The notes under the pieces: generated by a model
Told to the model about the DNA's origin: nothing
Databases searched by the model: none
The model's input: the letters and a program-made list of their open reading frames with translations, nothing else
Source: Candidatus Thorarchaeota archaeon
GTDB taxonomy: Archaea > Asgardarchaeota > Thorarchaeia > Thorarchaeales > Thorarchaeaceae
NCBI GenBank assembly: GCA_046758445.1
Contig: JBHIAE010000037.1
Coordinates: 1-27,458 of the forward strand
Direction: 5' to 3'
Length of the DNA stretch: 27,458 bases
Shown here: in pieces, positions 409 through 25,895 of the stretch
Layout of the letters: every line of letters begins with the position of its first letter
Position numbering within the stretch: position 1 is the stretch's first letter
Program-made: the position numbers and the translations under genes

Positions 409-3400
409 TCAACCCTTGATTCTACTAATCCTCTGCTTGACAACAACTATCACAACGACCGTAGCAAAGCCACCCAACATGATACCGGCCGACAACACCA
501 AAAGCACATTGAACCCGACATAAGTTCCTGTGCCCTCTTCAGAGGGCGGATCGATGTGGAACTGAATCATGTCAACGGCCTGCAGATCATCCAGTGTTGC
601 TGTGCAGTAAACCAAGTATATGCCCTTCTCTAGCCCCAGCTCATGCATGGTCTGCTCAGTAGTGAATATGTAGACACCCGAACCGGACTCCTCCTCGACC
701 AAGGTAACAGTCATGATGAATTGCTCAGAACCACCACCATTGTCATCGTCGTCATTGTCGTCATTGGGTGCAGGACCGTATATGGTTGCTGTGACATTCG
801 CGCCAGACACAGGATTGCCTGTGGCTGCGTCTGTCAAGAGGGCCGCCAGCTGAAGGTGGATTTTCTCCTTCAACAGGAAATCGAAGCTGCCACTCAGTTC
901 AAGATCCAGCACCTCCACAAGGCTCCAAGCCCCGAGGACAGTGACCTTGAAGACACCCCATTGCACATTACCGAGAGTGTCGTTCACCCATACCTTCAGT
1001 CCATAGACACCTTCAGAGAGTGGTGTCACCTCAGTGACAAGACCATAGATATCAACTTGGAAGTGGGCGGTGTCATTCAGCCACCAACTATCAAGACCAG
1101 ATAGGTCTGACGCAACAAGCTGGTAGCTCAGACTTTCGCCGTATTCTAGCGTCTGATCTAGGAGTGAAGCGCCCCACTCAGGCGGCGTCGTGTCAACCAC
1201 AGTCACTGTGATCCTCGCAGAGAGTGTGTTGCCGTAGATGTCCGAAACATGGATGGTCACACCATAGTTCCCTGGTGTCAGCACGCGGACGGTTCTGAGA
1301 CGCCCGGCCCAGTCTATAGCGAAGAGCCCATTCTCAACTGACCAGCGACCTAGTTCAGAAAGATCCGAGGCCTCGAGCTCGTAGAGAAAGTCCTCGCCAA
1401 ACTCGCTTGTTTGATCAGTGGGCACCACAATCCAGCTGGGAGGCGTAGTGTCCTGTACAATGATTCTGAAGGTAGCGCTGGCGTAGTTGTCGTAGGGATC
1501 GATTGCGCGAACCTCTATCCAGTATTCTCCGACCTCGAGACGTGTAGCGTTTACAATGACCCCATTACCGTCGATGAAGAATCTGATGGTGTCATTGATC
1601 CACCATTGGTGTATGCCAGACAGGTCGTATGCAAACAGCTCATAGCTGAAGGTATCGCCAAACTCTACTGTCCTATCTGATGGAGTCTGGATCCAGACAG
1701 GATCAGTGGTATCTACAACCAAGACACGGAACTCAGCGGACCTGTAGTTGCCATAGATGTCATACACACGCACCTCCAGTGAATAGACTCCAACGGCATG
1801 AAATGTGGAGTTCGTGATGACGCCGTCTTCGTCAATCACAAACCCTTCAGTTACGTTGAGCCACCAGTAGTCTACGCCAGAGAGTTCTGTCGCGTCCAGA
1901 TCATATGCGAAACTGGTTCCAAACTCTACTGTCTGTGTGACTGGCATTTCCACCCACGATGGAGGAGTTGTATCTATCACAGTGATAGTGAACTCTCCGC
2001 TCAATACGGCTCCACGCGTGTCATTTACTGACACGTTCAGCCCGTACGATCCCACAGGCACCAATCCAATACTGGTAATGACTCCGTTGCTGTCGATGCT
2101 GAAGTAGGTCGTGTCATTCAGCCACCAAGCATCCAAGTTCCAGAAGTATTGGACCTCAGTTTTGTAGCGGAAAATGTCACCAAACTCCAGTATCTGGTCA
2201 GCAGGAGGAGTCAGCCAGCGGGGCATCATGAGAGGGTGGGGATCCTGGTTGTTGTAGAAGGTGTGAGGAGTATCGCCAAAGCTATCCCCGTCGGCATCTA
2301 TTCCGGTGTAGTCCGAATAGAAGTTATAGTCGAAGGTGTTGTAGCTTCCGCGACTATCGTAGGCATTGGTCGTGCTATTTCCAAATACATTCCAGGTCAC
2401 ACTGTTGCGGTCTGAATAATAGAGATAGATTCCATAATCGCGGTTGTTGATACAGGTGTTGTTGGTCAGAGAACTGTAGTGGCTACGATAGAAGTAGATT
2501 CCGTATCGACTGTTTTCAGTACAGGTGTTGTTTCTTAGGATGTTGTGTGATCCATAGGAAGAAATGATTCCATAATCACGGTTCTGTGAACAGTCATTGT
2601 CTTCAATGACAATACTAGTGCACCGGTACATCCGGATACCGGCGTTAGTATTCCCTGTTAATACATTGTTTCTTGCGACAATGTCCGAGCATGTGGTCAG
2701 TAGAATTCCATAACGGTTCTGTGTGCATGTATTATCTTCTATGACAATGTCCGAGGATACGTACAGGTCAATTCCAGAAGAGTAACTACTTGTACAGTTG
2801 TTCCCGCTGATGAGTATAGAACTGGACCCATAGAGCCGAATGCCGTATTCATTCGAGGCACAAGTGTTGTTGATGAGTTGGCCGTTTGCGACCCCATCCA
2901 AGTAGATTCCTACGTAACTGTCATGCAGCAAACAGTCACGGATGATGAAGTTCACGCTCGTTGCTCGGACATAGATGCAGTAGTAGTATGATCCAGCGCT
3001 GATATCGAGGTACTCTATGCGGTAGGGATCAGTCGGAGTCCCGGAGCCCGGCCATCCCTGGTTCGCAAAGGACGCATCGCCAACCAGATAGATGCGACCG
3101 TGAGGGATGTACATGTCCACCGCCACCACAAAAGCTGCTGTTGCGACATTCCCAAGAGTATCATTTACTGACACCTGAATGTCATAGAGACCCTTGATCA
3201 GCGGCTTCACGTTGGTGATCACACCGTCTTGGTCTATCGTGAAGTTCTCATAGTTGCTCAACCACCAAAGTTCGATTCCTGACGGGTCATACGCATCTAG
3301 GTCGTAGTACAGGTCCTCTCCAAGCTCTAGACGCTGATTCCCTGGTGACAATACCCATTCGGGTGGTAGATTGTCCTGTACCGTGATGCTGAACTCGGCA

Positions 3401-6015
3401 GTTATGACATGTCCAGCTGTGTCATTTGCGTATACCGTTAGACCATAGCTCGAGCCAAAGGGTAGGAATGTGGAATTGGTGATCATTCCGTATTGGTCGA
3501 CCATAAAGTGCGCAGTATCATTGACCCACCACTCGTCGATTCCGGGGTAATAGGCAGTAGCGTCGACATCGTAGGCGAATACATAACCGTAATCAGCTAC
3601 CTGATCAGTGGGATACACCAACCACAACGGAAGTGCGCCAGGCGGCAGCATCATAGGATGGTAGTCCACTGGACGACTTCCATATCCGGGAATCGCATAT
3701 GGAGTGTCTCCGATGCCATTATTGTCTTCATCTGTGGTTCCAGTGTATTGGGAGTAGTAGTTGTGGCTGAAGACGCTACCATAGGTGCGATAGGCAAATG
3801 CGTCCTGAGTGTTGTTGGCAAACACGTTCCACACGACTACGTGTTGACCCTCTGCACTAGAATAGTCGTAGATGTAGATTCCATATCTGTTTCCGATGCA
3901 TGTAGTGTTGGCTATCGTGACGTTAAATGATCCCGTCAAGTAGATACCCCACTCGACATGATTGTTGAAAGTGTTGTTGGCCACCATGCAGTGACTTGAT
4001 CTATACATGTATAGTCCATAGAAGGTGGAGCCTGAGCAATTGTTGTTGATTATCACATTGAAGCTGGAGTATGAGGAGGAGATATAGCCTCCCGTACAGT
4101 CGTTGTCGCTTATTCTATTGTATGAGGCACTGCTAAGACCGATTCCTAGAACAGTATTGTTGCTGATAGTGTAGAAATGCGAGTATGACAAATAGATGGA
4201 CGTTGCACTGTTGTTAGTGACTGTGCCTGAATCAGATCGATAGAATCTCAAACTGCCTCCAATGTCGTTCTGTCTGACTGTGCTAGAACCGGAATAGTGG
4301 AACTCAACGTTCGCAGTGCAGTTGTTACGAACGACACTAACATGACTCGAGTACCTAATCGAGATGCTATAGTACCCTCCGGACACTGTGTTGTTGTATA
4401 TTGTATTATTAGCTGCATAGTAGAAGCGGATTCCATCGTTCGTGCCGGAAGCTAGGAGATTGTGCGAAACAATGTTGAACTGGCTTACATCAGAGAAATA
4501 GAAGCCAATCGTAAAGCCAGTGCAGTTGTTGCTGGTGATGATACTGTGGCTCGTGTTTGAGAAGTGGATTCCGTAAAAGTTGCCGATGAGTGTGTTGTCT
4601 GAGATGACAGCGTTGGACACATTGTGGAGGTATATGGCCGCATGCGGATATGTAGTGGCCCCACCAAGCGTACAATTGCGAATCTCGAAATGAACGCGGG
4701 TATGCGTAATGTAGATGCAGTAACCTCCAGTCCCGTACAAGTTGATGATCTGGTCTTCAATGATGAAGGGATCACCTTCAGTCCCGGTACCAGGCCATCC
4801 CTGCGTTTCAAAGTCTTCGTCAGATTCGATGACTATTGGAGGGTTGGGACAGAATTTCACATCCACGGTGAAACTGGCTTCTAGTATGTTGTTGTAAGTG
4901 TCATTCACAAAGACTCGAATACCGTATAACCCTCCGTAAAGGAAGGTTGCGTTTGTGATTACACCGTCGCCATCGATGGCAAAGTTGACCGTGTCATTGA
5001 TCCACCAGGTATCCAAGCCGGAGAGGTCCTGGGCGTTTAAGTCATATGTGAAATTCCTCCAGGACAATACCCTCCTATTGCTTGGAATGCCAACCCAGCT
5101 TGGAGGAGTTGTATCATGAACAGTCACCGTGAACGTTGACATCTGAGTGAGACCTAGTGTGTCATTGACCCAGACTTTGAGACCGTACTTGCCCACAGGC
5201 AGAAGTACCACATCTGTAATAACACCGTCCACATCAATGGCAAACCTCGCGGTGTCATTGAGCCACCACCTGTCAAGACCTGACAAGTCAGTTGCATTGA
5301 GGTCATAGTAGAAAGAGTCACCAAACTCGACAGTCTGATCAGTGGGCTCTTCTACCCACTCTGGTGGTGCTAGGGCATCGACGTCAATCCTTATTGTCGC
5401 AGTACAATAGTTGTGTGAAGGGTCGTAGGCCCTTATCTCGAGCCAATATACGTCCGGCGTTAAGTATGTAGCGTTTGTGATGAGTCCATTGATGTCGACA
5501 GAGAAGTGCGTGTCATTCACCCAGTAGTGATCAATACCTGCCAAATCGGTCGCGTTCACATCATAGACAAAGGGTATACTTTCCTCAAAGTGGTGATCGC
5601 CAGGGACCTCGTCCCAAGTGGGGCTAGTCGTGTCTTGGACTGTCACTCGAAATGTCGCACTGCAGTAGTTGTCGTATATGTCATAGGCCCTCAGTTCGAG
5701 CCAATAGATACCCACAGTCAGGTCGGTCGCATTTGTGATCAGACCGTCACCATCAATGCTGAACTGAGTATCATTGACCCAATAGTAGTCGATTCCAGAA
5801 ACATCCGAGGCCCCAATATCATAGCTGAATGCATCTCCGAACTCCACGATCTGGTCAACGGGCTGGAAGTCCCAAGTGGGCGGAGTGACATCAATGGAGA
5901 AACTCCAGACAGATGAGAAATCACTCAAATCGCCCTGAGAATCGTTGGCGAGGACCCGCCAGTACCATATGCCCTCCGCCAACGGTGACGAAGGAGTGTA
6001 GGTCGTGGCACCCAC
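409..6015 (-). CDS. C-terminal part of the giant surface protein: 11 Ig/cadherin-like repeats, two right-handed beta-helix (NosD/CASH-like) domains, C-terminal domain and TM anchor
   Basis: Repeated ~86-aa 'DTTPPxW..P.DQ..EFG..F.YDL.A.D.SGID.WW.NDT..F.ID..G.ITN...L..G.Y' units, 'NN.C..N.YGI.L..S' beta-helix repeats, and a hydrophobic C-terminus with a basic tail (KQRISRIKG). Confidence 0.85.
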   Translation of the reverse strand: MGATTYTPSSPLAEGIWYWRVLANDSQGDLSDFSSVWSFSIDVTPPTWDFQPVDQIVEFGDAFSYDIGASDVSGIDYYWVNDTQFSIDGDGLITNATDLTVGIYWLELRAYDIYDNYCSATFRVTVQDTTSPTWDEVPGDHHFEESIPFVYDVNATDLAGIDHYWVNDTHFSVDINGLITNATYLTPDVYWLEIRAYDPSHNYCTATIRIDVDALAPPEWVEEPTDQTVEFGDSFYYDLNATDLSGLDRWWLNDTARFAIDVDGVITDVVLLPVGKYGLKVWVNDTLGLTQMSTFTVTVHDTTPPSWVGIPSNRRVLSWRNFTYDLNAQDLSGLDTWWINDTVNFAIDGDGVITNATFLYGGLYGIRVFVNDTYNNILEASFTVDVKFCPNPPIVIESDEDFETQGWPGTGTEGDPFIIEDQIINLYGTGGYCIYITHTRVHFEIRNCTLGGATTYPHAAIYLHNVSNAVISDNTLIGNFYGIHFSNTSHSIITSNNCTGFTIGFYFSDVSQFNIVSHNLLASGTNDGIRFYYAANNTIYNNTVSGGYYSISIRYSSHVSVVRNNCTANVEFHYSGSSTVRQNDIGGSLRFYRSDSGTVTNNSATSIYLSYSHFYTISNNTVLGIGLSSASYNRISDNDCTGGYISSSYSSFNVIINNNCSGSTFYGLYMYRSSHCMVANNTFNNHVEWGIYLTGSFNVTIANTTCIGNRYGIYIYDYSSAEGQHVVVWNVFANNTQDAFAYRTYGSVFSHNYYSQYTGTTDEDNNGIGDTPYAIPGYGSRPVDYHPMMLPPGALPLWLVYPTDQVADYGYVFAYDVDATAYYPGIDEWWVNDTAHFMVDQYGMITNSTFLPFGSSYGLTVYANDTAGHVITAEFSITVQDNLPPEWVLSPGNQRLELGEDLYYDLDAYDPSGIELWWLSNYENFTIDQDGVITNVKPLIKGLYDIQVSVNDTLGNVATAAFVVAVDMYIPHGRIYLVGDASFANQGWPGSGTPTDPYRIEYLDISAGSYYYCIYVRATSVNFIIRDCLLHDSYVGIYLDGVANGQLINNTCASNEYGIRLYGSSSILISGNNCTSSYSSGIDLYVSSDIVIEDNTCTQNRYGILLTTCSDIVARNNVLTGNTNAGIRMYRCTSIVIEDNDCSQNRDYGIISSYGSHNILRNNTCTENSRYGIYFYRSHYSSLTNNTCINNRDYGIYLYYSDRNSVTWNVFGNSTTNAYDSRGSYNTFDYNFYSDYTGIDADGDSFGDTPHTFYNNQDPHPLMMPRWLTPPADQILEFGDIFRYKTEVQYFWNLDAWWLNDTTYFSIDSNGVITSIGLVPVGSYGLNVSVNDTRGAVLSGEFTITVIDTTPPSWVEMPVTQTVEFGTSFAYDLDATELSGVDYWWLNVTEGFVIDEDGVITNSTFHAVGVYSLEVRVYDIYGNYRSAEFRVLVVDTTDPVWIQTPSDRTVEFGDTFSYELFAYDLSGIHQWWINDTIRFFIDGNGVIVNATRLEVGEYWIEVRAIDPYDNYASATFRIIVQDTTPPSWIVVPTDQTSEFGEDFLYELEASDLSELGRWSVENGLFAIDWAGRLRTVRVLTPGNYGVTIHVSDIYGNTLSARITVTVVDTTPPEWGASLLDQTLEYGESLSYQLVASDLSGLDSWWLNDTAHFQVDIYGLVTEVTPLSEGVYGLKVWVNDTLGNVQWGVFKVTVLGAWSLVEVLDLELSGSFDFLLKEKIHLQLAALLTDAATGNPVSGANVTATIYGPAPNDDNDDDDNGGGSEQFIMTVTLVEEESGSGVYIFTTEQTMHELGLEKGIYLVYCTATLDDLQAVDMIQFHIDPPSEEGTGTYVGFNVLLVLSAGIMLGGFATVVVIVVVKQRISRIKG

Positions 6016-6102: not shown

Positions 6103-8439
6103 TCATTCGAACGTGGGCGTATTGTCGTTGAGCATTGCCCCGTCAACGGGTGAGTTGAGAGAAGGCGGGTCCAGTTGAGCGTAGTAGGAGAGAGAGAGCA
6201 TGGAGAGTATTGGTGTATTGCTCCAATTCGATGTCTGAAGTTTGGCACGCCACATCAACTGATGGCCAACCTGACCGAAGCTGTGCTCAACACCCGGTGT
6301 CACCGATTCCCAGTGTGTTCCGCCATCTGCTGAGAGGTAGTAGAAGATCCCGGTATCTGAAGGTGTTGCATCTGAGCAAGTCAGTGTGGCCCGCTCGACC
6401 GTGGCGGTTGGCGAGTCAAAGACTGCTAGAGATTGCCCAAGGGCCAGAGACTCATACTGTCGCCATCTGTTATGTCTAATCTCTATGATTTGTAGACCAT
6501 CCCGTATTGCGGCGACGTAAGCATAGTCGCCAGATACGAATACATCCTCATCGTCACCGGGGAATGTACATTGCCAGGCCACCGATGGGTGCAACGGATC
6601 CTCGATGTCGATTATCTGGAGATTACCTATTTGCGTAGTAAGATACGCATAGTTGCCTGAAACGAACACATCAATGGTACCTCCTGGCAAGTCAAGATGG
6701 CTGACCAACGTAGGATGAGCCGGATCAGATATGTTAACCACTGCTAGCCCGTTCATATGGATAGCTACATAGACGAAGTTCCCTTCAACAAATACAGCCA
6801 AGGCGCCGACACTACCAATGCCTCTAGGAACATCACACATCGCTAGTAGAGTCGGCTGTGTCGGATCTGTTACATTGAAGACTTTGAAACTACCCTCTGC
6901 ATCAGCAACGTAGGCATAGTCACCCTCCACATCCACATCGAACACCCTACCTGGAGTGTTGTAACTACCAACTATCCTTGGACTTCTTGGATCTGTGACG
7001 TTGACAACCTGTAGACCCGAGTAACGGTCGGCCATGTAAGCGTAATTGCCCTCAATGTCCAGATTCATAGAGCATTCGGGTGTGTCAACCCCGCCCGCCC
7101 TTGTCAGATGAGTCGGATCAGTGGCGTTGATTATCTGAAGTCCGGAGTTGCCGTTGGCAACGTATATGTAGTCACCAACTACCTTCATACCTTGGGACTC
7201 ACGTGGTGTTCTATATGATCCGAGCATGACAGGGTTGGTAGGATTTGAGATATTCAGAACTCGCACGCCGCTGTGCCATTCATTAGTATAGGCGTAGTCA
7301 CCACTTACGAATATACCACGAGTCATCTCAAGAGTATCAATGTGGCCGACCCACCTCGGAGCGACGGGATCAGATATCCTGATGACCTGCAATCCTGATT
7401 CCCCATCCGCTATATATGCAAAGTTGCCTGCGATTACAACATCTTTCACTGTTCCGTCTGTGTCACAGGCACCCGCCCACTCTGGGTGAAATGGAGAGGT
7501 GACATTCAAAGCTATTAGACCCGCAAGTCCGTTGGCTAGGTAGACGTAGTCGCCTTCGACCGCAACTGTCCAAGCATTGTCAGCCGTGTCATATGCACCG
7601 ACGAAAGTCGGATTCTTGGGGTCCGTAATATTGAGTATTTGCAACCCATGTTCCCCATCTGCAACATAGGCGTGATCGCCAGCAATCCAAACGCCTGAAG
7701 CCTGCTGAGGAATGCCACATGTTCCCGCCAGTACCGGACTTGCCGGATTCGTTACGTCAATTACTGCCAGTCCGGAGGCATTGTCAGCGATATATGCAAA
7801 GTTCCCCTCCACGTAGAGATTCATTGCATTCCCTGGAGTCGTGCAAGCCCCGGCCCACGTCGGTGATGTGGGAATGCTGATATTCACGGCCACCAGTCCT
7901 GTAGGATAGTCAACCAAGTACACGATGTCCCCTGTCACCCATAGATTGACCGCCGAACCGGGAGTGTCAATGGACGCCTCTAAGGTTGGGAGTGTGGGAT
8001 TGCTGATGTTGACTACCTGCAGTCCCGTTGTGCCAGCGGCCACATATGCGAAATCTCCCCAGATTGACACTGCCGAAGCATCACCTGATGTTTCACAGTT
8101 CCCGGCCAGAGTTGGGTGAGCAAGGTCTGTAATGTTGACCACCTGCAGCCCTGCTGATCCATCGGCAACATAGGCGAAGTCCCCCGCTATTGCGACTCCC
8201 ATGGCATCACCACCTGTGTCGTAGCCACCCACTAGTAGAGGATTACTGCGTGGGAGTCTTAACTCCCCTGTTCCCCAGCCTGTGGCATTTGTGACTGCGG
8301 CATCCTCAAAGGTCGTAGTCGTAAAGTCTTCAGTGTAATGAAGAGTTGCCGCTTCTACTGGACTAGGTCCCAGAAGTGCAAGAATCAACAGACCAGCTAG
8401 AAACGCTAGAATCATTCTTTCATGCAGGTTCAGAACCAT
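6103..8439 (-). CDS. N-terminal part of the giant surface protein: signal peptide plus 14 LVIVD repeats (probably two 7-bladed beta-propellers)
   Basis: Signal peptide MILAFLAGLLILALLG...VEA, followed by 14 copies of 'G.YAYVADG..GLQVVNI..P..P..(VG)..DT'. Confidence 0.85.
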   Translation of the reverse strand: MVLNLHERMILAFLAGLLILALLGPSPVEAATLHYTEDFTTTTFEDAAVTNATGWGTGELRLPRSNPLLVGGYDTGGDAMGVAIAGDFAYVADGSAGLQVVNITDLAHPTLAGNCETSGDASAVSIWGDFAYVAAGTTGLQVVNISNPTLPTLEASIDTPGSAVNLWVTGDIVYLVDYPTGLVAVNISIPTSPTWAGACTTPGNAMNLYVEGNFAYIADNASGLAVIDVTNPASPVLAGTCGIPQQASGVWIAGDHAYVADGEHGLQILNITDPKNPTFVGAYDTADNAWTVAVEGDYVYLANGLAGLIALNVTSPFHPEWAGACDTDGTVKDVVIAGNFAYIADGESGLQVIRISDPVAPRWVGHIDTLEMTRGIFVSGDYAYTNEWHSGVRVLNISNPTNPVMLGSYRTPRESQGMKVVGDYIYVANGNSGLQIINATDPTHLTRAGGVDTPECSMNLDIEGNYAYMADRYSGLQVVNVTDPRSPRIVGSYNTPGRVFDVDVEGDYAYVADAEGSFKVFNVTDPTQPTLLAMCDVPRGIGSVGALAVFVEGNFVYVAIHMNGLAVVNISDPAHPTLVSHLDLPGGTIDVFVSGNYAYLTTQIGNLQIIDIEDPLHPSVAWQCTFPGDDEDVFVSGDYAYVAAIRDGLQIIEIRHNRWRQYESLALGQSLAVFDSPTATVERATLTCSDATPSDTGIFYYLSADGGTHWESVTPGVEHSFGQVGHQLMWRAKLQTSNWSNTPILSMLSLSYYAQLDPPSLNSPVDGAMLNDNTPTFE

Positions 8440-16303: not shown

Positions 16304-16858
16304 CTATAATATCGCCGCGCAGTTCTTGCATCGCATGCTCACAGATGTATTGTTGAACCCGCAATACTCGCACTCCACAGTCTGACCAATTCGATGGAAT
16401 GCCCTCGTCGAAGTGGCATCAAGGTTCTTTAGATCAAAGACCTCATCAGACTTTGGATCATGCACTCTTATCGTGTAGACAGGGCTCTCGTTAACGTAGT
16501 GTGTCACCTTGGACGATATGAACTGTTCAAGCGGCCGTCCTGAAAAGTGCTCCAGAGGGACCTCTTTCATTAGGACGTCCCCTCTGGTCCTGACAATCCT
16601 GTCTGTGGTCAGGTAGTACCTGATTCTTCTCTCACGAAGGGCCGCTATCACTATGCTCACGAAGAGAATGAACAACAGAAAGAAGAGCGCCCCAACGAAG
16701 CCCCATCCGTAGAGATTGTACGACCCGACAAGAAGAACTGGCGAAGTCATGAAGAACAGGAAGCCGGAGACAATGATCTTACCGCTCATTCCGGCTCTTC
16801 TTGTCCAGACAATGCTCTCGCCGGGCTGTAGGCCTTCTCTTGGAGGATCAAAGCGCAA
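16304..16858 (-). CDS. Membrane protein with 2 TM helices, a bacterial PH-like domain and a C-terminal zinc ribbon
   Basis: 'LQPGESIVW' start, two TMs, 'YYLTTDRIV' (bPH-like) and CEYCG...CKNC. Confidence 0.75.
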   Translation of the reverse strand: MRFDPPREGLQPGESIVWTRRAGMSGKIIVSGFLFFMTSPVLLVGSYNLYGWGFVGALFFLLFILFVSIVIAALRERRIRYYLTTDRIVRTRGDVLMKEVPLEHFSGRPLEQFISSKVTHYVNESPVYTIRVHDPKSDEVFDLKNLDATSTRAFHRIGQTVECEYCGFNNTSVSMRCKNCAAIL

Positions 16859-17300: not shown

Positions 17301-17408
17301 CTAGCTTACGGAAGAGTTCCGAAGAATCTTGAAGGCCGTGACCTCCGCCCAGACCAAAGGAAAGGCCACTGCTAAACGCTGGAGCAAACCCGTAAATGCC
17401 TCTAGACT
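17301..17408 (-). pseudogene. 3' fragment of a DUF998-family membrane protein gene
   Basis: Not in the ORF track. Manual translation gives SLEAFTGLLQRLAVAFPLVWAEVTAFKILRNSSVS*, matching the 'GLxQR...W' last helix of DUF998 proteins. It has no start codon and an upstream in-frame TAA at 17418-17420. Confidence 0.7.
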
Positions 17409-17463
17409 CTCGCTTCCTTATCAAGGAGAGCCTACTGTCTGCTCCCATGCTAGCTAAAGAAGG

Positions 17464-20400
17464 CTACTGTTCATAGAACGTGACACCTTTCTCCTCAAGG
17501 GCCTGCTTGACCTCCTCTCTTATCACACTGAGTAAGTCTTCATCAATGCCATATGGTGTGAGACTAGCATTCACCTCAGTATCAACATGTTCTGAGTCGA
17601 TGGCCCCAGCAAACTGGGAGTCATTGAGACATCCGTTGACATCACTCACCACGTATACATGCGGACTATCCCCGTCATCTGACTCCAAGAATACAACGAC
17701 CACCGTACGAGGTCGCTCCTTCCTGACCTCAAGTCCCTTGTACCTGAAGACGAGCGTTTCATCGTACAATGGAATGACCTCATCCAAGGACGACTTGAAC
17801 TCCTCATATCTCTCAAGGAGAGTCACTCTGTGGACTCCCAGTTCATTATCGAGATTGCTAAGATGAGAGAGAGGAGCAATCGCCTCGACCTCCTGACGGA
17901 ATACCTCTAACTCTTTGTCAGGCGGGGTACCCGGGGTCAGTATGAACGTGAATGTCCTGTTCCTCCACGGTCTGCCCGTGGTCCCGGAGATGATGGTCCA
18001 GAACAACTCGTTGCCTATAATCCTAGTCGATAGAAGCCATGTATCTCTTGACCAATCGAACTCGCTTACATCGGCTTCCCGAACTGCTTCCTCAAGCCGT
18101 GGGTAGTCGTGGAGCTTGCCGAAACTCACGTCCATGATGGCATTGACGTTGAGAATGAACGGATGCCACATTCTACTATCAGGGTCGAAGAGCTCCCTGC
18201 ACTCGGCTAGCAGTCCAAGAGCATGGACATCGAATCCAACCTCCTCCAGTCCTCTCAGGGAAGAGTCCTGTGGCAGGTCCTCTAGTTCGATCCTAAAGTT
18301 ACTATCTTCCTGACGGATGACCATGGTGATCTCATTCCCAGCGGTCGAAGCGAGCAGCTCCTTACACGTCCTTGGGTAATGAAACTCATCAGGATAGAAC
18401 CAACTTCGATGGACCAGAGGTTTCAGGAAGAAGAGGGAGTCGCCGCCATAGTCGATATCCCTCTTGTGATCCCAAGTGAGTGTGTTTCCCTGTGACCGAT
18501 GTCCCCCTCCTAGACGGACTGGCAACCTGAGGAATCGTACAAGTTCTCCAGTCCTTGAGAACTCAAGTCGTTCTTTGATAGAGTTTCCATGAAGCTCGAC
18601 CTCGTAGACCTTCTTGTCATTGTTGACACTGACCATCAGCTCCACGGGTATCGTCCTGTGCCTGACTCGTGCGAGCCTCCTGAGCGCCTCAGCGACGGAG
18701 TCTGGAACTGCGGGCACACTACCAGGGGAAGCAAGAGGGACTGTTGTTTCTAGTTTTAGCCAAGGAACTCTATTCCATCGTCCACTGGGTTTGCCATGCA
18801 CCAGAGAGAATGAAACCCATTGGAGATCGTCGTCATACTCGGTCAATACTGGTACCCAGAGGACCTTGGTTTTCAGGACCGTGGTCATGACAAGAGGAGT
18901 TGCATCGGTGGACAGTAGAGCCTCTTCTGCGAATCTCTTCATGTCCTGAGGGGCCGTCGCGCAGGCATGCCACTTTGGTGGGATCCATCTATCTCCGAGG
19001 CCCTTGACTAAACCTGTTAGAAATCCATCCTCATAGGGTATGAGGAGCAGAGCATCGAACCCGAACTCGGACTCCCTCCAGACGACAGCACCGACCTGTT
19101 CTTGTTCAATAGCCCTCTCAGGGAGATCGAGCTGCACAAGCGTCCTAGCACGTGTCCTGAGGTTGGAGAGGATTGCCTGAAAGCTATAGACCGACCTTGA
19201 TTCGCCGTCCTGGATGTTCATCCCGAGCTGGTAGAGTGTCCACTCGGCCACGGAGGACCAGAGATGTTCAGCAATGGATAGATTCCTGCCCTCAAGGGCG
19301 GCCAAGACAGCAAGGAACAGGTTGTTGCCATACAGGAGGAGGACGTCAGGGGTCATCTCCATGACATCCTCCATGGCCAGTCTGTTCTCTGAGTTCAAGA
19401 GGTCGAGAAGCCCCTGCCTGAGTGGAACGAGGTTCCTCCAGACTTCTACTCTCTTGGGGTCCTCAAGAATGGTCTTCCGAATCTTCCTGAGTGCATCAAG
19501 GAAGAACTCTGGTGTCTTCATAGAGGGGTCTTCTTGGATGATGGCGAACTGCTTTGCACAGAACCGTTCTATCCTCCTACAGCAGTCCCTCAGGCTCTTT
19601 GTGAGGTGACTCCGGTCGCTCAGATGCCGTGTCGCATAGTAGAGCCGCCTGAGTTCTAGTTCACGGGTTTCGATTGTGTCTATCTCTCCTGCCCCTGTGT
19701 CCCCCACCACTGGGGGATAGGAAGACACAGCATGTGCATCCTCATCTTCTTGAAACTGCTTTGGTGTCCGTTCATAGAACCAACGTCTGGTAATGCTGTT
19801 TTCAGAGTCGGTGAAAACATCAGTGTATCTCTTCTCTCCTCTTCTTGGAGTCGGTGGAGGTCTCTTGACATCGAGGACCATTCTATCACCCATTGTTGAC
19901 CCGCCATCTGAACTCACAGTCTGAATGACTGACTGCCAAGGAAGTCCTTCTGAGGGTGGCTCTTTCCCCACCTCCTCTTCAGAAGACGCAGGAACTCTAC
20001 ATCTTAGGACACTTGGTGCCAGAGTCAGTGCATCCTCTAGGACCTTGGAGAATGAGTCGTACGAGAGTCTACCAGTAGATGCATAGATCTCAGAGAGGGT
20101 CACTCCTCTTCCATGCATGGATGTGATGTGAGTGGTGTATGATACCATTACATCAGGAACGACGATCTTATCCCGCTTGGCAAGCCCTCTGAACTTCTCT
20201 GCAAATCCCACCAGCTGTGGCACATGGATTGCGACGCTCCAGGGGTCTGCCTTGGCAGGAGTGTCCTGCACGATGATTCGGACATCTTCCGCCTGTGGAG
20301 TCAACCATCCAAATCTCGAAGGCATTGTAGGGATGTTATAGATGATCTCGTCGAGGTGGGTCCTGCGGGGTGAGTCATGCCTGACAGGACTGACACCCCT

Positions 20401-23037
20401 CCGTTGGTAGTGGCAGTTCATTCGAGTGTGCGACACACCGCTGTCAATCCAGATGATGTTGATATTGGACTGTGGCAGAGTGTCAAGCATTCGTTGCTCA
20501 AGGGCACGGACCAGGTTCTGTTGATATCTTGGAACCATATCTCGGAGTTCTGTCCACCCATCGAGAACTACGATACGTTCACCATTCTCCTTCTCAGGAA
20601 GGACGGTCTCGATGTGTCTGACTAGCCTATCAAGTGCCTCTGCTCCCTCTATGATGATTTCATTGATATCAGTACTCAGGTCCAAGAACCTGATGGACCT
20701 GAGGGTTGAAGTGAGCTGTCGATGAACTCTCTTGGGTATCATCTGCTCATGCAGCAGGGCATCAAGTCCGAACCGTCTTCTGACCAGTTCATCCGTCTTG
20801 TAGTCCCCCATGAGGTCCAACCACACGACCTCCTCTATGGGTGTAGGGGATGTTTCGATACACTCTTGGACATGATGAAGGAGATGCCAGTCCCGCGAGA
20901 ACCTTGCTGCAGTGATTCCCGAGGAGGTCGGAGAGGGAATGGACACATAGAGTGTGAGGACCCGGGCATCCGTTTCTCGATCAATGAAGGGGTCTTCCAC
21001 AGGCAGACTGCCTGGACTGACCATCTCTTGGAGGAGTTCAGTGGGTCCTCTTGAGGGAGCAACAAGCAAGGCCACTCTGGGAGCATCATCTCCGGAACTC
21101 AGGGGTCCTGGCACAACCGAGATAGGGGTGTCCTGTTCGACAATCTGATGGAGGAGTCCTGTCATCAGGTCTTCAAGGAGATAGTGAAAGGCGGGGAAGA
21201 CCTCAATCGGACTCTGGTCTGTGTCCAAAACAATGACTCCCTTCCAGAGTGATGTGGGAGGGGTTGGATCGTGTACGGCAATCCTCTTGTACTCGTCGAG
21301 GACCTCGAGTTCGTAGTCCCTAAGCTGCTCAAGAGCGCTCTTGTCTGGACCTGATGTGACGAGGGTCTTCCATTCGTCATCGCTCATTGCACGTTTCCAT
21401 GCATAGAAGGCAGGAACGACCGAGGTCTTCCATTTTCGCTTGATCCGCATACCATAGAGGTTGAAATCAAGGGCAGTCTTGGTCTTGATCTCCAGGACCA
21501 TCACTGGTGTCCACAGGATTCGTCCTGCAATCTCCCGCCTGATGAAGATGGTGAGGTCCACTTGTCCCGAGCGTCTTGCAACAGGTAGCTCAGCGACCAC
21601 AAGAACGGATGCTAGTGAGTCGAGCATCTTGTCCCCTAAGAATGCGACTTGTTTCAGGGACGCTGGATGATGGAGGTCTGAGAGGAGTATCCTGTGCCAT
21701 TCGTTGCCCTCTCGCTGGCTGAGAAACAGGACCTGTTCAACAAGCTTCTCTACATCCCGGTCCAATATGTATCCGGCGTTAATATCAAGATAGTCAAGGA
21801 GTTTCAGCCAACACTCTCGTACAGTCTGGTCACTTGTCCTCGTTAGCTGCTTGACAATCTTCTCTCGGACCTCCTGGAAGGCCGTCTTATCACTGTGGTC
21901 TTCTAGCGGCCAAGTATCAGTATAATCAAGCATCTTTTGCAGGGACTTGCGCTCGGTCGTGTTGGTTGTCCTTTCCAACCGCCTAGCGACTTTTCCTCGT
22001 ATCTGTTCGATTGTCTTCTTGACATCTTCGTCAGCAACTAGTCCCGTGTCAATGTAGTCGAGGAACTCTAGTAGAAACCTTTGCTCATCCAAATCAGTGG
22101 TGTTCGCTAGCTGCTTGATGACCATCTTGCGGACCCTTTCAAGGGATAGATTTATGGAATTCTCTCCATGTCTTTTGGAGATGCGTTGACGGGACCTGGT
22201 TCGCTTCTTGTATAGCGCCCGGATTTCAAGGACTATCTTCCTGAGCTCGTGGTCAGCATGAGGATTGAAGTTCGGTCGTCCCTCTTGTCCATCAGTGTAT
22301 ATCCAGTCAAGGAAGGGTCTTAGTCGATGGATGAGGAGTCTGATGTAACGATGTGCCTCGGTCAAAGGTACGTGATAGATGAAACATTGCCTACAGAGCT
22401 CGACGCAATGCGCCCTGATCATGTCCACAAAGTCTAGTCCAGGCAGGGTGGGATGAGCAAGAAATATGCGTGGACTCTTTCCCTCCCTCTCATAACCATA
22501 TCGCCAATAGACTTTGACTGCGGTATCATCCACAATCTTGTCAGCCTCTATCTTGGTGAGGGTCTTCTTGCTCCCGTCAGGATATTCCCGGATCTGAAAT
22601 GCCAGTGGTCGTGGAAAGGGGTATAGGATCATTGCAAGGTCACGGAGCCGTGCACCTGCGTAATTTAGTAACGCATTGAGTGGACCGACAGTGCCCTCCA
22701 ACCAGCTATAGACTCGCTTGAACTCTCTGTTGCCGTATCGCTTGGTGCTGGTCCACACAATCTTGAGAAACTGACCCCGCATGTTTGGTTCGGCATTCTG
22801 TACGGGAGAGAAGTCTGTCTGGCTCAAGCCCTTCTGTTCTTCAAGGGAATTCCGGACCGAGACCCAAATCTTCTTGATGCTCTGACAGTACCTGCGGGTC
22901 TTCCTGCTGACTCTGTTCCGGGCAAGTCGATTTAGTGCCACGAGACCCATGTAGATTGCGGTACTGAGGATACCAGGTGAGTTATTGATCTTTCCTTTTC
23001 TACCCCTCATCAGTGTCACATAGACAAGACCTGTCAA
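17464..23037 (-). CDS. Giant uncharacterised protein (~1850 aa) with helical repeats, a PD-(D/E)XK nuclease domain and a degenerate RecA/KaiC-like P-loop domain
   Basis: Motifs E483..GQVD494..LE516IK518..Q571LRDY, 'LYVSIPSPTSSGIT' (Walker A-like, K->I) and 'RIVVLD826G' (Walker B-like). Numbering is from 23037. The true start may be ATG 23010, about 30 nt below a TTATAT box. Confidence 0.8.
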   Translation of the reverse strand: MTGLVYVTLMRGRKGKINNSPGILSTAIYMGLVALNRLARNRVSRKTRRYCQSIKKIWVSVRNSLEEQKGLSQTDFSPVQNAEPNMRGQFLKIVWTSTKRYGNREFKRVYSWLEGTVGPLNALLNYAGARLRDLAMILYPFPRPLAFQIREYPDGSKKTLTKIEADKIVDDTAVKVYWRYGYEREGKSPRIFLAHPTLPGLDFVDMIRAHCVELCRQCFIYHVPLTEAHRYIRLLIHRLRPFLDWIYTDGQEGRPNFNPHADHELRKIVLEIRALYKKRTRSRQRISKRHGENSINLSLERVRKMVIKQLANTTDLDEQRFLLEFLDYIDTGLVADEDVKKTIEQIRGKVARRLERTTNTTERKSLQKMLDYTDTWPLEDHSDKTAFQEVREKIVKQLTRTSDQTVRECWLKLLDYLDINAGYILDRDVEKLVEQVLFLSQREGNEWHRILLSDLHHPASLKQVAFLGDKMLDSLASVLVVAELPVARRSGQVDLTIFIRREIAGRILWTPVMVLEIKTKTALDFNLYGMRIKRKWKTSVVPAFYAWKRAMSDDEWKTLVTSGPDKSALEQLRDYELEVLDEYKRIAVHDPTPPTSLWKGVIVLDTDQSPIEVFPAFHYLLEDLMTGLLHQIVEQDTPISVVPGPLSSGDDAPRVALLVAPSRGPTELLQEMVSPGSLPVEDPFIDRETDARVLTLYVSIPSPTSSGITAARFSRDWHLLHHVQECIETSPTPIEEVVWLDLMGDYKTDELVRRRFGLDALLHEQMIPKRVHRQLTSTLRSIRFLDLSTDINEIIIEGAEALDRLVRHIETVLPEKENGERIVVLDGWTELRDMVPRYQQNLVRALEQRMLDTLPQSNINIIWIDSGVSHTRMNCHYQRRGVSPVRHDSPRRTHLDEIIYNIPTMPSRFGWLTPQAEDVRIIVQDTPAKADPWSVAIHVPQLVGFAEKFRGLAKRDKIVVPDVMVSYTTHITSMHGRGVTLSEIYASTGRLSYDSFSKVLEDALTLAPSVLRCRVPASSEEEVGKEPPSEGLPWQSVIQTVSSDGGSTMGDRMVLDVKRPPPTPRRGEKRYTDVFTDSENSITRRWFYERTPKQFQEDEDAHAVSSYPPVVGDTGAGEIDTIETRELELRRLYYATRHLSDRSHLTKSLRDCCRRIERFCAKQFAIIQEDPSMKTPEFFLDALRKIRKTILEDPKRVEVWRNLVPLRQGLLDLLNSENRLAMEDVMEMTPDVLLLYGNNLFLAVLAALEGRNLSIAEHLWSSVAEWTLYQLGMNIQDGESRSVYSFQAILSNLRTRARTLVQLDLPERAIEQEQVGAVVWRESEFGFDALLLIPYEDGFLTGLVKGLGDRWIPPKWHACATAPQDMKRFAEEALLSTDATPLVMTTVLKTKVLWVPVLTEYDDDLQWVSFSLVHGKPSGRWNRVPWLKLETTVPLASPGSVPAVPDSVAEALRRLARVRHRTIPVELMVSVNNDKKVYEVELHGNSIKERLEFSRTGELVRFLRLPVRLGGGHRSQGNTLTWDHKRDIDYGGDSLFFLKPLVHRSWFYPDEFHYPRTCKELLASTAGNEITMVIRQEDSNFRIELEDLPQDSSLRGLEEVGFDVHALGLLAECRELFDPDSRMWHPFILNVNAIMDVSFGKLHDYPRLEEAVREADVSEFDWSRDTWLLSTRIIGNELFWTIISGTTGRPWRNRTFTFILTPGTPPDKELEVFRQEVEAIAPLSHLSNLDNELGVHRVTLLERYEEFKSSLDEVIPLYDETLVFRYKGLEVRKERPRTVVVVFLESDDGDSPHVYVVSDVNGCLNDSQFAGAIDSEHVDTEVNASLTPYGIDEDLLSVIREEVKQALEEKGVTFYEQ
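21742..22143 (-). repeat. Three tandem ~44-aa helical repeats inside the giant protein
   Basis: LERVRKMVIKQLANTTDLDEQRFLLEFLDYIDT / IEQIRGKVARRLERTTNTTERKSLQKMLDYTDT / FQEVREKIVKQLTRTSDQTVRECWLKLLDYLDI. Confidence 0.8.
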
Positions 23038-23259
23038 TTGATATAAGTACTTTCGTGGGTAATCTAAAATACTCTAAATCAAGATTAAAGCGCGTATATC
23101 ACTTTTTTGCGGGAAAAAAGCATGGATAGCAATTAATCTTAATAAATTTATATACAACTCTACTATACAATTGTACGAGTTCAAAACCCCTTTCTTGGAC
23201 AAGAAGAGGAGTGAATTCGACTGACTGAAACAGGTCAGGAATTTATATACAAAGGCGGG
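23038..23259. promoter_or_regulatory. AT-rich divergent promoter region with archaeal TATA boxes
   Basis: AATTTATATACAA occurs twice (23145-23157 and 23240-23252, + strand). GAAAGTACTTATAT lies on the minus strand ending at 23041. A CTTTTTT-GCGGG-AAAAAAG inverted repeat is at 23102-23120. Confidence 0.65.
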
Positions 23260-24936
23260 ATGGCGATGGCTCCTTCCACAGGTGTGACAATCGCGGTTAA
23301 GGTTCCCATCAACTGGGAAGTCATGACCACGAGGACTAGGCAGCGGCTTAGACAGACCGTTGGACGAGATACTCGAGTGATACACGCTTTCCTTGGAATA
23401 ATCGAACAGCATGAAGACGAATTGTTAACAGGCAGAAACAGGATTGATGACGGCAAGCTGGATCAGTTGACCATGACAGCGCTCAAGGTCAAGTCTGGCT
23501 ACGAGAAACGACCATGTGTTCCACATGACTTCAAAGTCCGATTTCCTCGGATCTCTCAGAACGAGATGACCGAGTGTCGACAAACTGCTGTCGCGCTCTA
23601 CGAGGGCTATCTCGGACTCAGGACGAAGACAGGGAGAAAGGTTTCACGCCCAGCATCGACCAATAGCAGCCGAAGGATACCTCGGTGGGTCTTTTCCCAG
23701 AGATTCAGACTCATTGAGAATGAAACCTCCGCCTCTCGATGGTGGCTTGACATCAGGGACTCTCTTGACTCTGTTCAGGAAGAACGAACACGCCATGACC
23801 GTTTGAGCATCCCCCTCAGAATGTCGCCCTTCCATCTGAACCAACTCAGACGTGGTGAAGTGAAAGCAGTGCAGCTCTTCACTGATAGAAGAAGGAAGTG
23901 GTGGGCAACGATTGCGGTCAGGGTTGATGTTGATGAATCTCCTAAGAACAACCTTCCTGTTTGCATCATTGGAGTTGACCTTGGTATCGAGAAAGCCGCC
24001 TGCTCGACCCTCCTCACTCCTGAGAAGACAAGAGAGACTCGATACTTTGTCCAGAGAGAGAAGGTCAAGTCTATCAAGAAGTACGATAGGCTTGTGGCAG
24101 ACCTACAGAGAGAGATGTACACTAGAAAGAACAACGGAGATCCCTACGATGAAGTAGCTAGGCGGCTCCGTCGACTGCGTTCCAAGAGAGAGAATGTTGC
24201 CCGAGAGTATGACAGGGTACTTGTGCGTCATATTCTTGACTATATCTCGGAACTGTCCAGGAGGTACACACTCTATGTCGCCATTGGTCGCCTGAAGAAC
24301 ATGCGAATGCGTGCGAAGCGAGGGAACTACAAGGGTCGAAGGTTCAGAGGAATGATCCATTCTTGGGCCTTTGCTCGGATTACCAACAGTCTGAAACATG
24401 GACTTGCTCAGCTTGGATGGAAGGTCGATGGAAAGGATGCCCGGTTCAGAGCTGTTCCTGAGGCGTGGACCTCCATCATCTGCTGGAAGTGTGGCTGCAA
24501 GGGTAGGAGACCCAGACAGAATTACTTCCACTGTCCATCGTGTGGACAGAAGACCAATGCTGACCGAAATGGTAGTATCAACATCGCCGCACGCATGCTC
24601 ACGCTCACAAAGTCATTGCACTCTGTGAGAGGACTAGGTCTGTGGACTAGAGCCTTAGATAAGGCTCGACGTGCGCGACTGAAAGCCCGAAGGAAGAGAA
24701 CTTCTCAAGGGAAGTCCTTACTCTCCAAGAGAGGACCTGCATCAAGTCCCGGAGAGTCCGCGGCCGTTCACTATGTCCAGTTGGACCTCTCCAGCTTTGG
24801 TGACGAGGCTGGAGTGAGTGATGATGACCCTGCCGTGGGAAGAACTGTGAAAGTTCTCACTGTCGCTGGGAGTGATGGCCCGGCATCAGGAAAGGAGAAG
24901 GAGGCCAGGTCTGGAGGAGGGATCCCGTCCCGATGA
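23260..24936 (+). CDS. tnpB: TnpB-family RNA-guided endonuclease (IS200/IS605/IS607 OrfB; Cas12/Fanzor relative) with rearranged RuvC-II
   Basis: RuvC-I IIGVD240LG, RuvC-II position VAIG343RL, alternative Glu VPE401AWTS, zinc finger C408xxC411...C425xxC428 and RuvC-III NAD435RNGSINIA. Confidence 0.92.
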   Translation: MAMAPSTGVTIAVKVPINWEVMTTRTRQRLRQTVGRDTRVIHAFLGIIEQHEDELLTGRNRIDDGKLDQLTMTALKVKSGYEKRPCVPHDFKVRFPRISQNEMTECRQTAVALYEGYLGLRTKTGRKVSRPASTNSSRRIPRWVFSQRFRLIENETSASRWWLDIRDSLDSVQEERTRHDRLSIPLRMSPFHLNQLRRGEVKAVQLFTDRRRKWWATIAVRVDVDESPKNNLPVCIIGVDLGIEKAACSTLLTPEKTRETRYFVQREKVKSIKKYDRLVADLQREMYTRKNNGDPYDEVARRLRRLRSKRENVAREYDRVLVRHILDYISELSRRYTLYVAIGRLKNMRMRAKRGNYKGRRFRGMIHSWAFARITNSLKHGLAQLGWKVDGKDARFRAVPEAWTSIICWKCGCKGRRPRQNYFHCPSCGQKTNADRNGSINIAARMLTLTKSLHSVRGLGLWTRALDKARRARLKARRKRTSQGKSLLSKRGPASSPGESAAVHYVQLDLSSFGDEAGVSDDDPAVGRTVKVLTVAGSDGPASGKEKEARSGGGIPSR

Positions 24937-25084
24937 TGACGGACAATGCTCTTGCTAATTCTGAAATCCTTTGGATTTCGGAAGGTGGTGACACTGGCAG
25001 GAGAGGGGCGGAACACAGGAGTTTCTTGCTGTCGTGGTTCACTCACCACGAAATGTAAGATATGGGTTATCTCGAACATGTAGA
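24860..25084 (+). ncRNA. Putative omegaRNA (reRNA) scaffold / right-end region
   Basis: A series of hairpins follows the tnpB 3' end: 24925-24942, 24959-24983 (11 bp), 24990-25033, 25032-25051 (7 bp perfect) and 25053-25079. The position matches known TnpB omegaRNAs. The 5' boundary is a guess. Confidence 0.55.
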
Positions 25085-25234
25085 AGACGCGTATGGTGCG
25101 TCGACGGCACCTAATTCGCTCATGGACTGACTGATGGGATCATACCCCGGCTCAAGTAACCCTAGGCCGACTAGGACTACCGCGTAGATTACTGGGCCTA
25201 CGATTCCTGCCATGACGAGTCTGGAGCGTTCCAT
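25067..25234 (-). pseudogene. 5' fragment of a DUF998-family membrane protein gene
   Basis: MERSRLVMAGIVGPVIYAVVLVGLGLLEPGYDPISQSMSELGAVDAPYA has the DUF998 'PGY....xSELG' signature. It then runs into unrelated sequence (SSTCSR*) after about 50 aa. Confidence 0.8.
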
Positions 25235-25346: not shown

Positions 25347-25895
25347 ATGAGAGAGATAACATTCGAACCCCGGTTGGCCAAGCGCTTACAGAAACAGTAT
25401 CGGATGGAGAAGCCTCCAGCCAACCTGACTGAGCTCATCGAGTTTACCAAGGCACAGGTGTTGGCGACACCCGGAGGGCGGGAGCAGATCGCTTCCATCC
25501 GCGAGGGCAAAGTGACGATCGGGGAAACAGACTTAGACCGCGGGCAGTCCATCGTTTCGTCAGACGGACGCGAATTGAAGGTCATGTGCGGTTACGACTC
25601 CCTTGCGACAGCTCTGCTGCGCGGCGAGGGCCTTGTCAGGGCCACGTGCTTCCATTGCGGCGAGAAGATGGAGATAGAGATCAAGGACGGCGAACTTGTT
25701 CGCGCCTCCCACCCTTCGATTCGCTTTTGGTTTGGGGACGGCCCCAAGGGCATCTCCGTGTGCGACCACTACAACTTCTTCCCAGATCAAGAACACCTTG
25801 ATGGCTGGCTCGAAACGAACCCTGAGGAGCTTGGTGTCGCGCTCTCCCTTGACGAGGCCATAGAATTCATGGAGCTCTCCCACGAGGGATTGTGA
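25347..25895 (+). CDS. merB: Organomercurial (alkylmercury) lyase MerB-like protein
   Basis: MCGYD (catalytic Cys/Asp), 'ATCFHCGEKMEIEI' and 'VCDHYNFFPDQEHLDGW' match the MerB core motifs. Confidence 0.75.
   Translation: MREITFEPRLAKRLQKQYRMEKPPANLTELIEFTKAQVLATPGGREQIASIREGKVTIGETDLDRGQSIVSSDGRELKVMCGYDSLATALLRGEGLVRATCFHCGEKMEIEIKDGELVRASHPSIRFWFGDGPKGISVCDHYNFFPDQEHLDGWLETNPEELGVALSLDEAIEFMELSHEGL

Follow-up and report, generated by a model that had tools for sequence, protein, structure and literature searches.

The window analyzed in this study, positions 1 to 27,458 of contig JBHIAE010000037.1 of a Candidatus Thorarchaeota archaeon, contains a giant gene on the reverse strand and, divergent from it at a distance of ~250 bp, a gene encoding TnpB (Table 1). 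The giant open reading frame (ORF, 17464..23037, -) runs for 1857 codons without a stop and opens at a TTG codon at 23037; the start is likely M10, an ATG at 23010, giving a protein of 1848 amino acids (aa), because the database copy has this length and the homologues start there. The giant gene and tnpB were inserted as a single 7.66-kb unit into a DUF998 gene. In the congeneric genome G156 (contig C313), GACTCTCG is directly followed by AACATGTAGAAGAC, unbroken, inside an intact DUF998 gene (201 aa, L137:808-1413, PF06197, E 2e-27), which shows that the segment 17413-25070 was acquired in a single insertion. CTCG lies on both sides, and its initial base or bases may belong to the element; no longer direct or inverted repeats were found flanking the locus.

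Table 1. Features of the aCas1-TnpB element and its target gene in the window.
Feature	Position	Strand	Remarks
DUF998 target gene, 3' fragment	17310..17412	-	
CTCG, left copy	17409..17412	.	once in empty site, on both sides of insertion
Mobile unit: giant aCas1 gene, divergent promoter region, tnpB, omegaRNA/right end	17413..25070	.	7,658 bp; empty site in congener
Last remnant of IS607-type tnpA 3' end (probable)	17413..17463	+	from homology to copy 2; too short to score alone
aCas1 giant gene	17464..23010	-	1848 aa from M10; dN/dS vs copy 2, 0.21-0.28
Structured beta-rich C-terminal region, fold not assigned	17467..19140	-	aa ~1300-1857
Possible second, degenerate Cas1-like helical domain (weak)	19168..19710	-	aa ~1110-1290
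Low-confidence linker, probably disordered	19738..20190	-	aa ~950-1100; model pLDDT 36-50; poorly conserved
RecA/KaiC-like domain, degenerate Walker A (SPTSSGIT)	20209..20973	-	aa ~689-943; core fold present, Walker A GxxxxGK[ST] absent
PD-(D/E)XK nuclease domain	21118..21720	-	aa ~440-640; E483, D494, E516-x-K518, Q571xxxY575
Helical linker with lineage-specific repeats	21778..22140	-	aa ~300-420; in <15% of homologues; helical in model; 42-nt direct repeat D3
Cas1-like catalytic alpha-helical domain	22243..22965	-	aa ~25-265; candidate metal-binding E83 (or E105), H195, D202, D205, with R208
Divergent intergenic region	23011..23259	.	TATA-like boxes 23147, 23241; inverted right-end 8-mer 23209-23216
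TnpB, 558 aa, short type, class with GTTCACTCA motif	23260..24936	+	PF07282 E 5.5e-12; NF040570 E 7.4e-27; dN/dS vs copy 2, 0.21
omegaRNA-like structured 3' region and right end	24904..25070	+	GTTCACTCA motif at 25037-25045, exact match
CTCG, right copy	25071..25074	.	
DUF998 target gene, 5' fragment	25071..25234	-	~343 bp of gene missing between 25088 and 25089

The giant gene product is very probably the aCas1 of the Asgard aCas1-TnpB elements. Altae-Tran et al. 2023 (PMC10691335), citing Makarova et al. 2020, described "Asgard Cas1s (aCas1s)" that replace the usual transposase in two Asgard TnpB groups, named Cas1H-Asgard-1 and -2, suggested aCas1 as the transposase, and reported the GTTCACTCA motif downstream of tnpB in loci "often flanked with repeats". 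The window locus is a member of this published kind, which has been described by computation only, and nothing essential differs: the Thorarchaeota host, the Cas1-like gene head-to-head with tnpB, the two TnpB classes, the GTTCACTCA motif, and the presumed mobility are as published, and only the flanking repeats were not seen in the window copy beyond 3-4 bp. A first-pass annotation of the sequence had called the giant protein novel, a claim that the earlier publication of the aCas1-TnpB pairing overturns. No experimental work on these elements was found in the literature searched. The present analysis adds a fold-based domain map, exact limits defined by an empty site, remnants of a tnpA gene, and the one-ended look of the junctions. 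These elements are of wider interest as they join, in one transposon, the families thought to be ancestral to CRISPR adaptation (Cas1) and to type V interference (TnpB to Cas12).

A word-indexed search identified 64 homologues of the giant protein (27-68% identity), the named sources of which were metagenome-assembled genomes of Thorarchaeota, Lokiarchaeota, and Promethearchaeia. The whole protein had no match in Pfam, NCBIfam, PADLOC, or PDB sequences. Conservation across the family peaks in the N-terminal ~270 aa. Residues 25-960, modelled with AlphaFold2 from 61 family sequences, had a predicted local distance difference test score (pLDDT) of 84.3 and a predicted template modelling score of 0.80, and exhaustive structural comparison of this model yielded two sets of matches, the second of which was confirmed by Foldseek (E 1e-4). 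The N-terminal domain has the catalytic-domain fold of the Cas1 superfamily. The match begins at residue ~25 and spans only Cas1 residues ~100-345, that is, the catalytic part; the N-terminal beta domain of Cas1 is not present in the giant protein. These N-terminal ~240 aa correct the first-pass annotation, which had recognized no integrase motifs. A tyrosine recombinase, considered from an N-terminal R..R.H..H..Y pattern, was dropped because the fold matched Cas1.

Profile-profile alignment (hhalign) of 144 N-terminal domains with 22 Asgard Cas1 sequences gave a weak but coherent agreement (local E 0.0053, global E 7e-4). In this alignment, E83 falls on the catalytic Glu of Cas1, GPLNALLNY corresponds to the DPVNALLS.GY motif, and LD202-x-x-D205-x-x-R208 to LD-x-x-E-x-x-R. 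The family shows little or no variation at E83, H195, D202, and D205, which are candidate metal-binding residues. The giant protein shares with Cas1 and casposases (PF01867; 8flj, 4n06, 6opm) the catalytic fold and the motif order E, NALL.Y, H..D..[DE]..R, whereas it has neither the N-terminal beta domain nor Cas2 or a CRISPR array, and its Cas1 part is embedded in a multidomain protein of 1,848 aa. The unit also differs from a casposon in that it holds two genes only, without PolB or inverted repeats, and with a target duplication of <=4 bp instead of 14-15 bp. A hidden Markov model of the N-terminal domain retrieved only a spurious S14 match among PDB sequences, and a genome-wide PF01867 search found no match in this genome.

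Behind the Cas1-like domain, the motif set that the first-pass annotation had assigned to a RecB/AddB/Cas4-like nuclease and to an inactivated P-loop domain (E483, D494, E516, K518, Q571, Y575, S702..T709, and D826) was found at the claimed positions. The conservation of E483, D494, E516, and K518, which it had proposed to examine, proved invariant or nearly so among the 64 homologues: in the family alignment, E483 (62/62), D494, K518, Q571, and Y575 (63/63 each) never vary, and position 516 is Glu in 61 members and Asp in two. In the Walker-A-like loop, S705 is found in 63 of 64 members and G707 in all, as are W739, D741, D826, G827, and W828 (64/64 each). The near-invariance of these residues confirms the initial observation and lies far outside what chance would give.

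The PD-(D/E)XK fold of aa ~440-640 is supported indirectly, by the invariant motif, by the alpha-beta-beta-beta...alpha-beta order of the model with the motif residues on the expected strands, and by the nearest named language-model clusters, all of which belong to the PD-(D/E)XK clan; no structural match was obtained for this domain by itself. Cas4 (PF01930) was rejected for this domain, as it has no conserved Cys cluster and its comparison with 25 Asgard Cas4 by hhalign was not significant (E 0.17). Like Cas4-Cas1 fusions, the giant protein combines PD-(D/E)XK and Cas1-type domains in one polypeptide, but in reversed domain order and without the four-Cys Fe-S cluster.

The following domain has a RecA/KaiC-type fold that has lost the Walker A lysine, in agreement with the P-loop domain described earlier as apparently inactivated. 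Position 708 is most often Asn (N36, V8, K7, I5, E3) and is Ile in the window. Lys is retained there in seven of the 64 relatives, and therefore it is plausible, judging from this alignment, that the ancestral domain was an active ATPase. Set against RecA-fold pseudo-ATPases and paralogues (KaiC, RadB, Elp4/5/6, and RAD51 paralogues), the domain lacks the Walker A Lys in the window copy and in 57 of 64 relatives and is internal to a larger enzyme. The C-terminal ~900 aa, which had been noted as a large region without a family, gave no significant match to a solved structure; a second, dead Cas1-like domain is perhaps contained in the C-terminal ~750 structured residues.

In a scan with one genome per species, 77 giant loci were found, nearly all in Thorarchaeota and at most eight in one genome. 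The head-to-head neighbour of the giant gene is TnpB in 50 of the 51 loci with enough upstream DNA, which bears out the functional tie between the two genes suggested by the first-pass annotation. By size, the partner TnpBs form two classes (~560-590 and ~720-735 aa) with ~18-20% identity between classes, and the class switches at least 6-8 times along the aCas1 tree. Therefore, the partner is exchangeable while the pairing stays. The short class has IGxL at the expected RuvC-II Glu and a conserved VPE.WTS ahead of the zinc finger (consensus of 51 sequences). In a degraded copy (G000:C38:97-1398; L007, L012), an N-terminal aCas1 fragment containing a stop codon immediately precedes, in the same orientation, the C-terminal portion of a long-type TnpB.

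The 3' region of tnpB has features of an omegaRNA. RNAalifold analysis of 22 loci predicted 29 pairs, 14 of them with compensatory changes, and the GTTCACTCA motif lies ~100 nt past the tnpB stop in 30 of 31 short-type loci. A covarying hairpin at this motif was not supported, as the mean stem of 5.9 bp gave no gain over 5.8 bp in mismatched-partner controls. Because Cas1-like and PD-(D/E)XK domains occur in a single protein, and Altae-Tran et al. (PMC10691335) noted a hypervariable stretch beside the repeat-like motif, we considered a CRISPR-like adaptation module, in which aCas1 and a Cas4-like nuclease would renew a spacer-like guide beside the repeat-like GTTCACTCA motif of the TnpB RNA. 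Such a module is highly improbable: the stretch ahead of the motif is only ~9-13 nt long and near-identical in three copies of this genome (84-87% identical overall), no CRISPR array or tandem repeat was found in the window (nor an Rfam family), there is no Cas2, and the nuclease is not Cas4-like by Cys cluster or profile.

A second copy of the element in this genome, split over contigs C36 and C102, is 87-89% identical over window positions 17412-25080 and has the same limits as the window copy (17412 and ~25080). More distant giant paralogues were found on contigs C85 and C2. tnpB-only copies were found on contigs C15, C4, and C70; they share sequence from 23137 rightwards, to ~25070. In the comparison of copies 1 (the window copy) and 2, both genes had ratios of nonsynonymous to synonymous substitution rates (dN/dS) of 0.21-0.28 at a dS of 0.28-0.40, indicating purifying selection on each gene in the two copies. 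The window copy is compact, intact, and exactly delimited, with an empty site, a second copy for comparison, and a host without a detectable rival transposase.

A domesticated host system for defence or regulation, in which TnpB-omegaRNA finds a nucleic-acid target and the giant protein is the recruited effector nuclease, would also be consistent with the strict pairing around a shared divergent promoter, the two conserved nuclease-type active sites, and the purifying selection in the absence of a transposase. We regard this as unlikely, as genomes carry several diverged copies each (eight at most), the insertion within a host gene is polymorphic, the PADLOC search gave no match, and the guide position corresponds to the flank, as in mobile TnpBs. 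Among the functions proposed by the first-pass annotation, that of an effector recruited by the TnpB ribonucleoprotein has no support, while an atypical transposase and a processor of DNA together with TnpB are both kept.

Additionally, we surveyed the 53 giant loci having >=800 nt of downstream DNA for tnpA. An IS607-type TnpA (MerR-HTH plus Resolvase, ~206 aa), convergent with the giant gene 3' end and on the tnpB strand, was present in nine loci (intact in three, frameshifted in two, and as a remnant in four) spread over the aCas1 tree, and no recombinase was found within 1 kb of the giant gene in the other 44. Copy 2 retains a tnpA remnant (aa 124-202), and together with the ~51 nt left in the window this indicates that the lineage stems from a three-gene IS607-like element. 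In the assembly studied, which is 92.7% complete, searches with PF01797 (Y1) and PF00239 (serine recombinase) gave no match, while 13 TnpB loci were found; a serine recombinase was present in one of four other sampled genomes of the genus. Similar to the IS607 family (Chen et al. 2018, PMC6188088), the window unit has tnpB with the omegaRNA at its right end and lacks inverted repeats, it may likewise lack a real target duplication (3-4 bp at most), and its relatives carry the MerR-HTH/Resolvase TnpA in the IS607 position. It differs from that family in the 5.5-kb antisense gene between tnpA and tnpB, in the absence of tnpA from most copies including that of the window, and in the lack of an evident GG core at the ends.

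Three insertions have empty sites in G156, and in all three the right end is exact and the other side irregular. Copy 1 is cut within tnpA without loss of target; copy 2 is cut at a different point within tnpA, with 325 nt of target lost; and the tnpB unit on C15 (L125 1503-3904; L183) carries ~700 nt of unrelated host-like DNA and has lost 18 nt of target. The DNA carried by the C15 unit includes a PHP-like ORF fragment that is present elsewhere in G156. The sequence shared by the two sides is CTCG (3-4 nt) in copy 1, is not clear in copy 2, and is possibly AT in C15. Exact right and irregular left ends in three insertions are not the pattern that a conservative two-ended serine-recombinase reaction gives. 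This pattern fits one-ended insertion, although three separate decays fit it too. In one-ended transposition of replicative transposons (Tn3 family, IS91-like), one end is exact and the other junction varies through truncation or carry-over of donor DNA. The likeness to these systems rests on three insertions, and the window unit has no DDE or HUH enzyme.

We tentatively favour, at somewhat less than even chance, the reading that the element encodes, in the giant protein, its own enzyme for breaking and joining DNA, which would act mainly at the right end, with its catalysis predicted from fold and motifs. The PD-(D/E)XK domain would free a DNA end, and a single active Cas1-like site would join the 3'-OH of the TnpB-side (right) end to the target, while the holding of DNA or oligomerisation would fall to the pseudo-ATPase and the C-terminal domains. 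Precise joining would be limited to one end, the other junction being left to host repair, which would account for the contrast between exact right and irregular left ends. The TnpB-omegaRNA, with the right flank as its guide, would protect the insertion, as known for IS200/IS605 and IS607 TnpBs. This reading is supported by the two tnpA-less copies kept under purifying selection, by the lack of a detected rival transposase in this genome, by the pairing that persists in 50 of 51 loci despite the TnpB class swaps, and by the Cas1 fold and motifs together with the invariant nuclease motif.

Several observations weigh against the giant protein as the transposase. Its sequence tie to Cas1 is weak: no Pfam or NCBIfam model, including PF01867, matched the giant protein over threshold, and a HMMER profile searched against 1.84 billion representatives retrieved 125 clusters, all family members or fragments, with no bridge to canonical Cas1. 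Terminal inverted repeats were not found, and the duplication is at most 3-4 bp, unlike those of casposons or CRISPR repeats. The ancestor of the window copy, judged by homology, had another transposase, the IS607-type TnpA. As IS607 TnpA by itself suffices for IS607 transposition (PMC6188088), this ancestry weakens the published suggestion of aCas1 as the transposase. The two copies end at different points in the tnpA remnant, and therefore no aCas1-specific left end is defined; the irregular left ends may have arisen by decay on three separate occasions; and the tnpB-only copies indicate that aCas1 is not needed in cis.

In a rival explanation, which we consider a serious but less probable possibility, the element is an IS607-family transposon that is moved by the serine recombinase TnpA, with aCas1 as a conserved break-processing accessory. 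TnpA would act in cis where the element is complete, and in trans or not at all for the window copy. For example, after TnpB has cut the donor site left empty, aCas1 could resect or otherwise handle that break and so allow the element to be copied back. The intact, frameshifted, or remnant tnpA genes on the tnpB strand beyond the giant gene, distributed across the aCas1 tree, are as expected for such a transposon, as is the lack of inverted repeats and essentially of target duplication, and break processing would suit a protein with a RecB-type nuclease and a RecA-type fold. However, 85% of loci and the whole genome are without a recombinase, yet both genes are under purifying selection. The left junction of copy 1 shows no target loss, which would be an improbable outcome if the left end and tnpA had been deleted secondarily, and the irregular end of the C15 tnpB unit carries 700 nt of foreign DNA. 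Moreover, the RecA-like domain has no P-loop lysine, and the need of an accessory for an intact Cas1-type site is left unexplained. The domain map and junction data sharpen the choice between the giant protein as the transposase, which we rank first, and as an accessory of an IS607-type element, and they name residues for mutation.

The right flanks provide additional hints. The right-flank targets of two independent aCas1-TnpB insertions, CTCGAACATG-TAGAAG and CTCACACATGGTAGGC, are both native to the empty sites (compared regions: window 25071-25087, L123 (C102) 1-31, and L167 3030-3070), and eight of their first ten bases agree (own binomial estimate ~4e-4). This hints at a target preference over ~10-17 nt in this genome, as read from the flanking sequences; the flanks differ in other lineages. 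The ~343-bp loss of target relative to G156 begins 18 nt right of the element's right end, which is about the cutting distance of TnpB-type nucleases. A bolder form of the transposase reading is one-ended, target-directed movement, in which TnpB-omegaRNA, with the old right flank as guide, would select a similar sequence at another place, the single-site Cas1-like enzyme would attach the right end exactly at the target edge, and host repair would finish the other side. The exact right ends in three of three insertions, the 8/10 flank agreement, and the 343-bp deletion 18 nt off the right end are hints in this direction, but we consider it improbable; if true, TnpB-guided transposition by means of a Cas1-family integrase would exist in nature. 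Break-repair "homing" following cleavage by TnpB was rejected by reasoning only, as it does not alone put the element on the observed target side. In the short-type elements L046, L047, L049, and L043, tRNA-like sequence with T-arm motifs lies directly past the right end.

Large helicase-Cas1 fusions in other Asgard genomes are unrelated to the aCas1 giant family. These DEAD-helicase/Cas1 fusions of 1,323-1,363 aa (L163:6035-10126 and L165:4970-8941, both -) probably belong to the published ARAMP systems, and the one in L163 adjoins a RAMP gene. Among the other neighbours in the window, a 184-aa gene (16304-16858) is not conserved beside homologues of the giant gene. Two adjacent giant surface-protein ORFs (409-6015 and 6103-8439, -) lie <90 nt apart, one of which is rich in Asn-x-Ser/Thr with beta-helix-like repeats, as read from the translation, while the other has LVIVD repeats. 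In addition, a MerB-like (alkylmercury lyase) gene (25347-25895, +) adjoins the element, and on contig C2 a 78% identical MerB-like copy lies ~2.6 kb away from another aCas1 paralogue.

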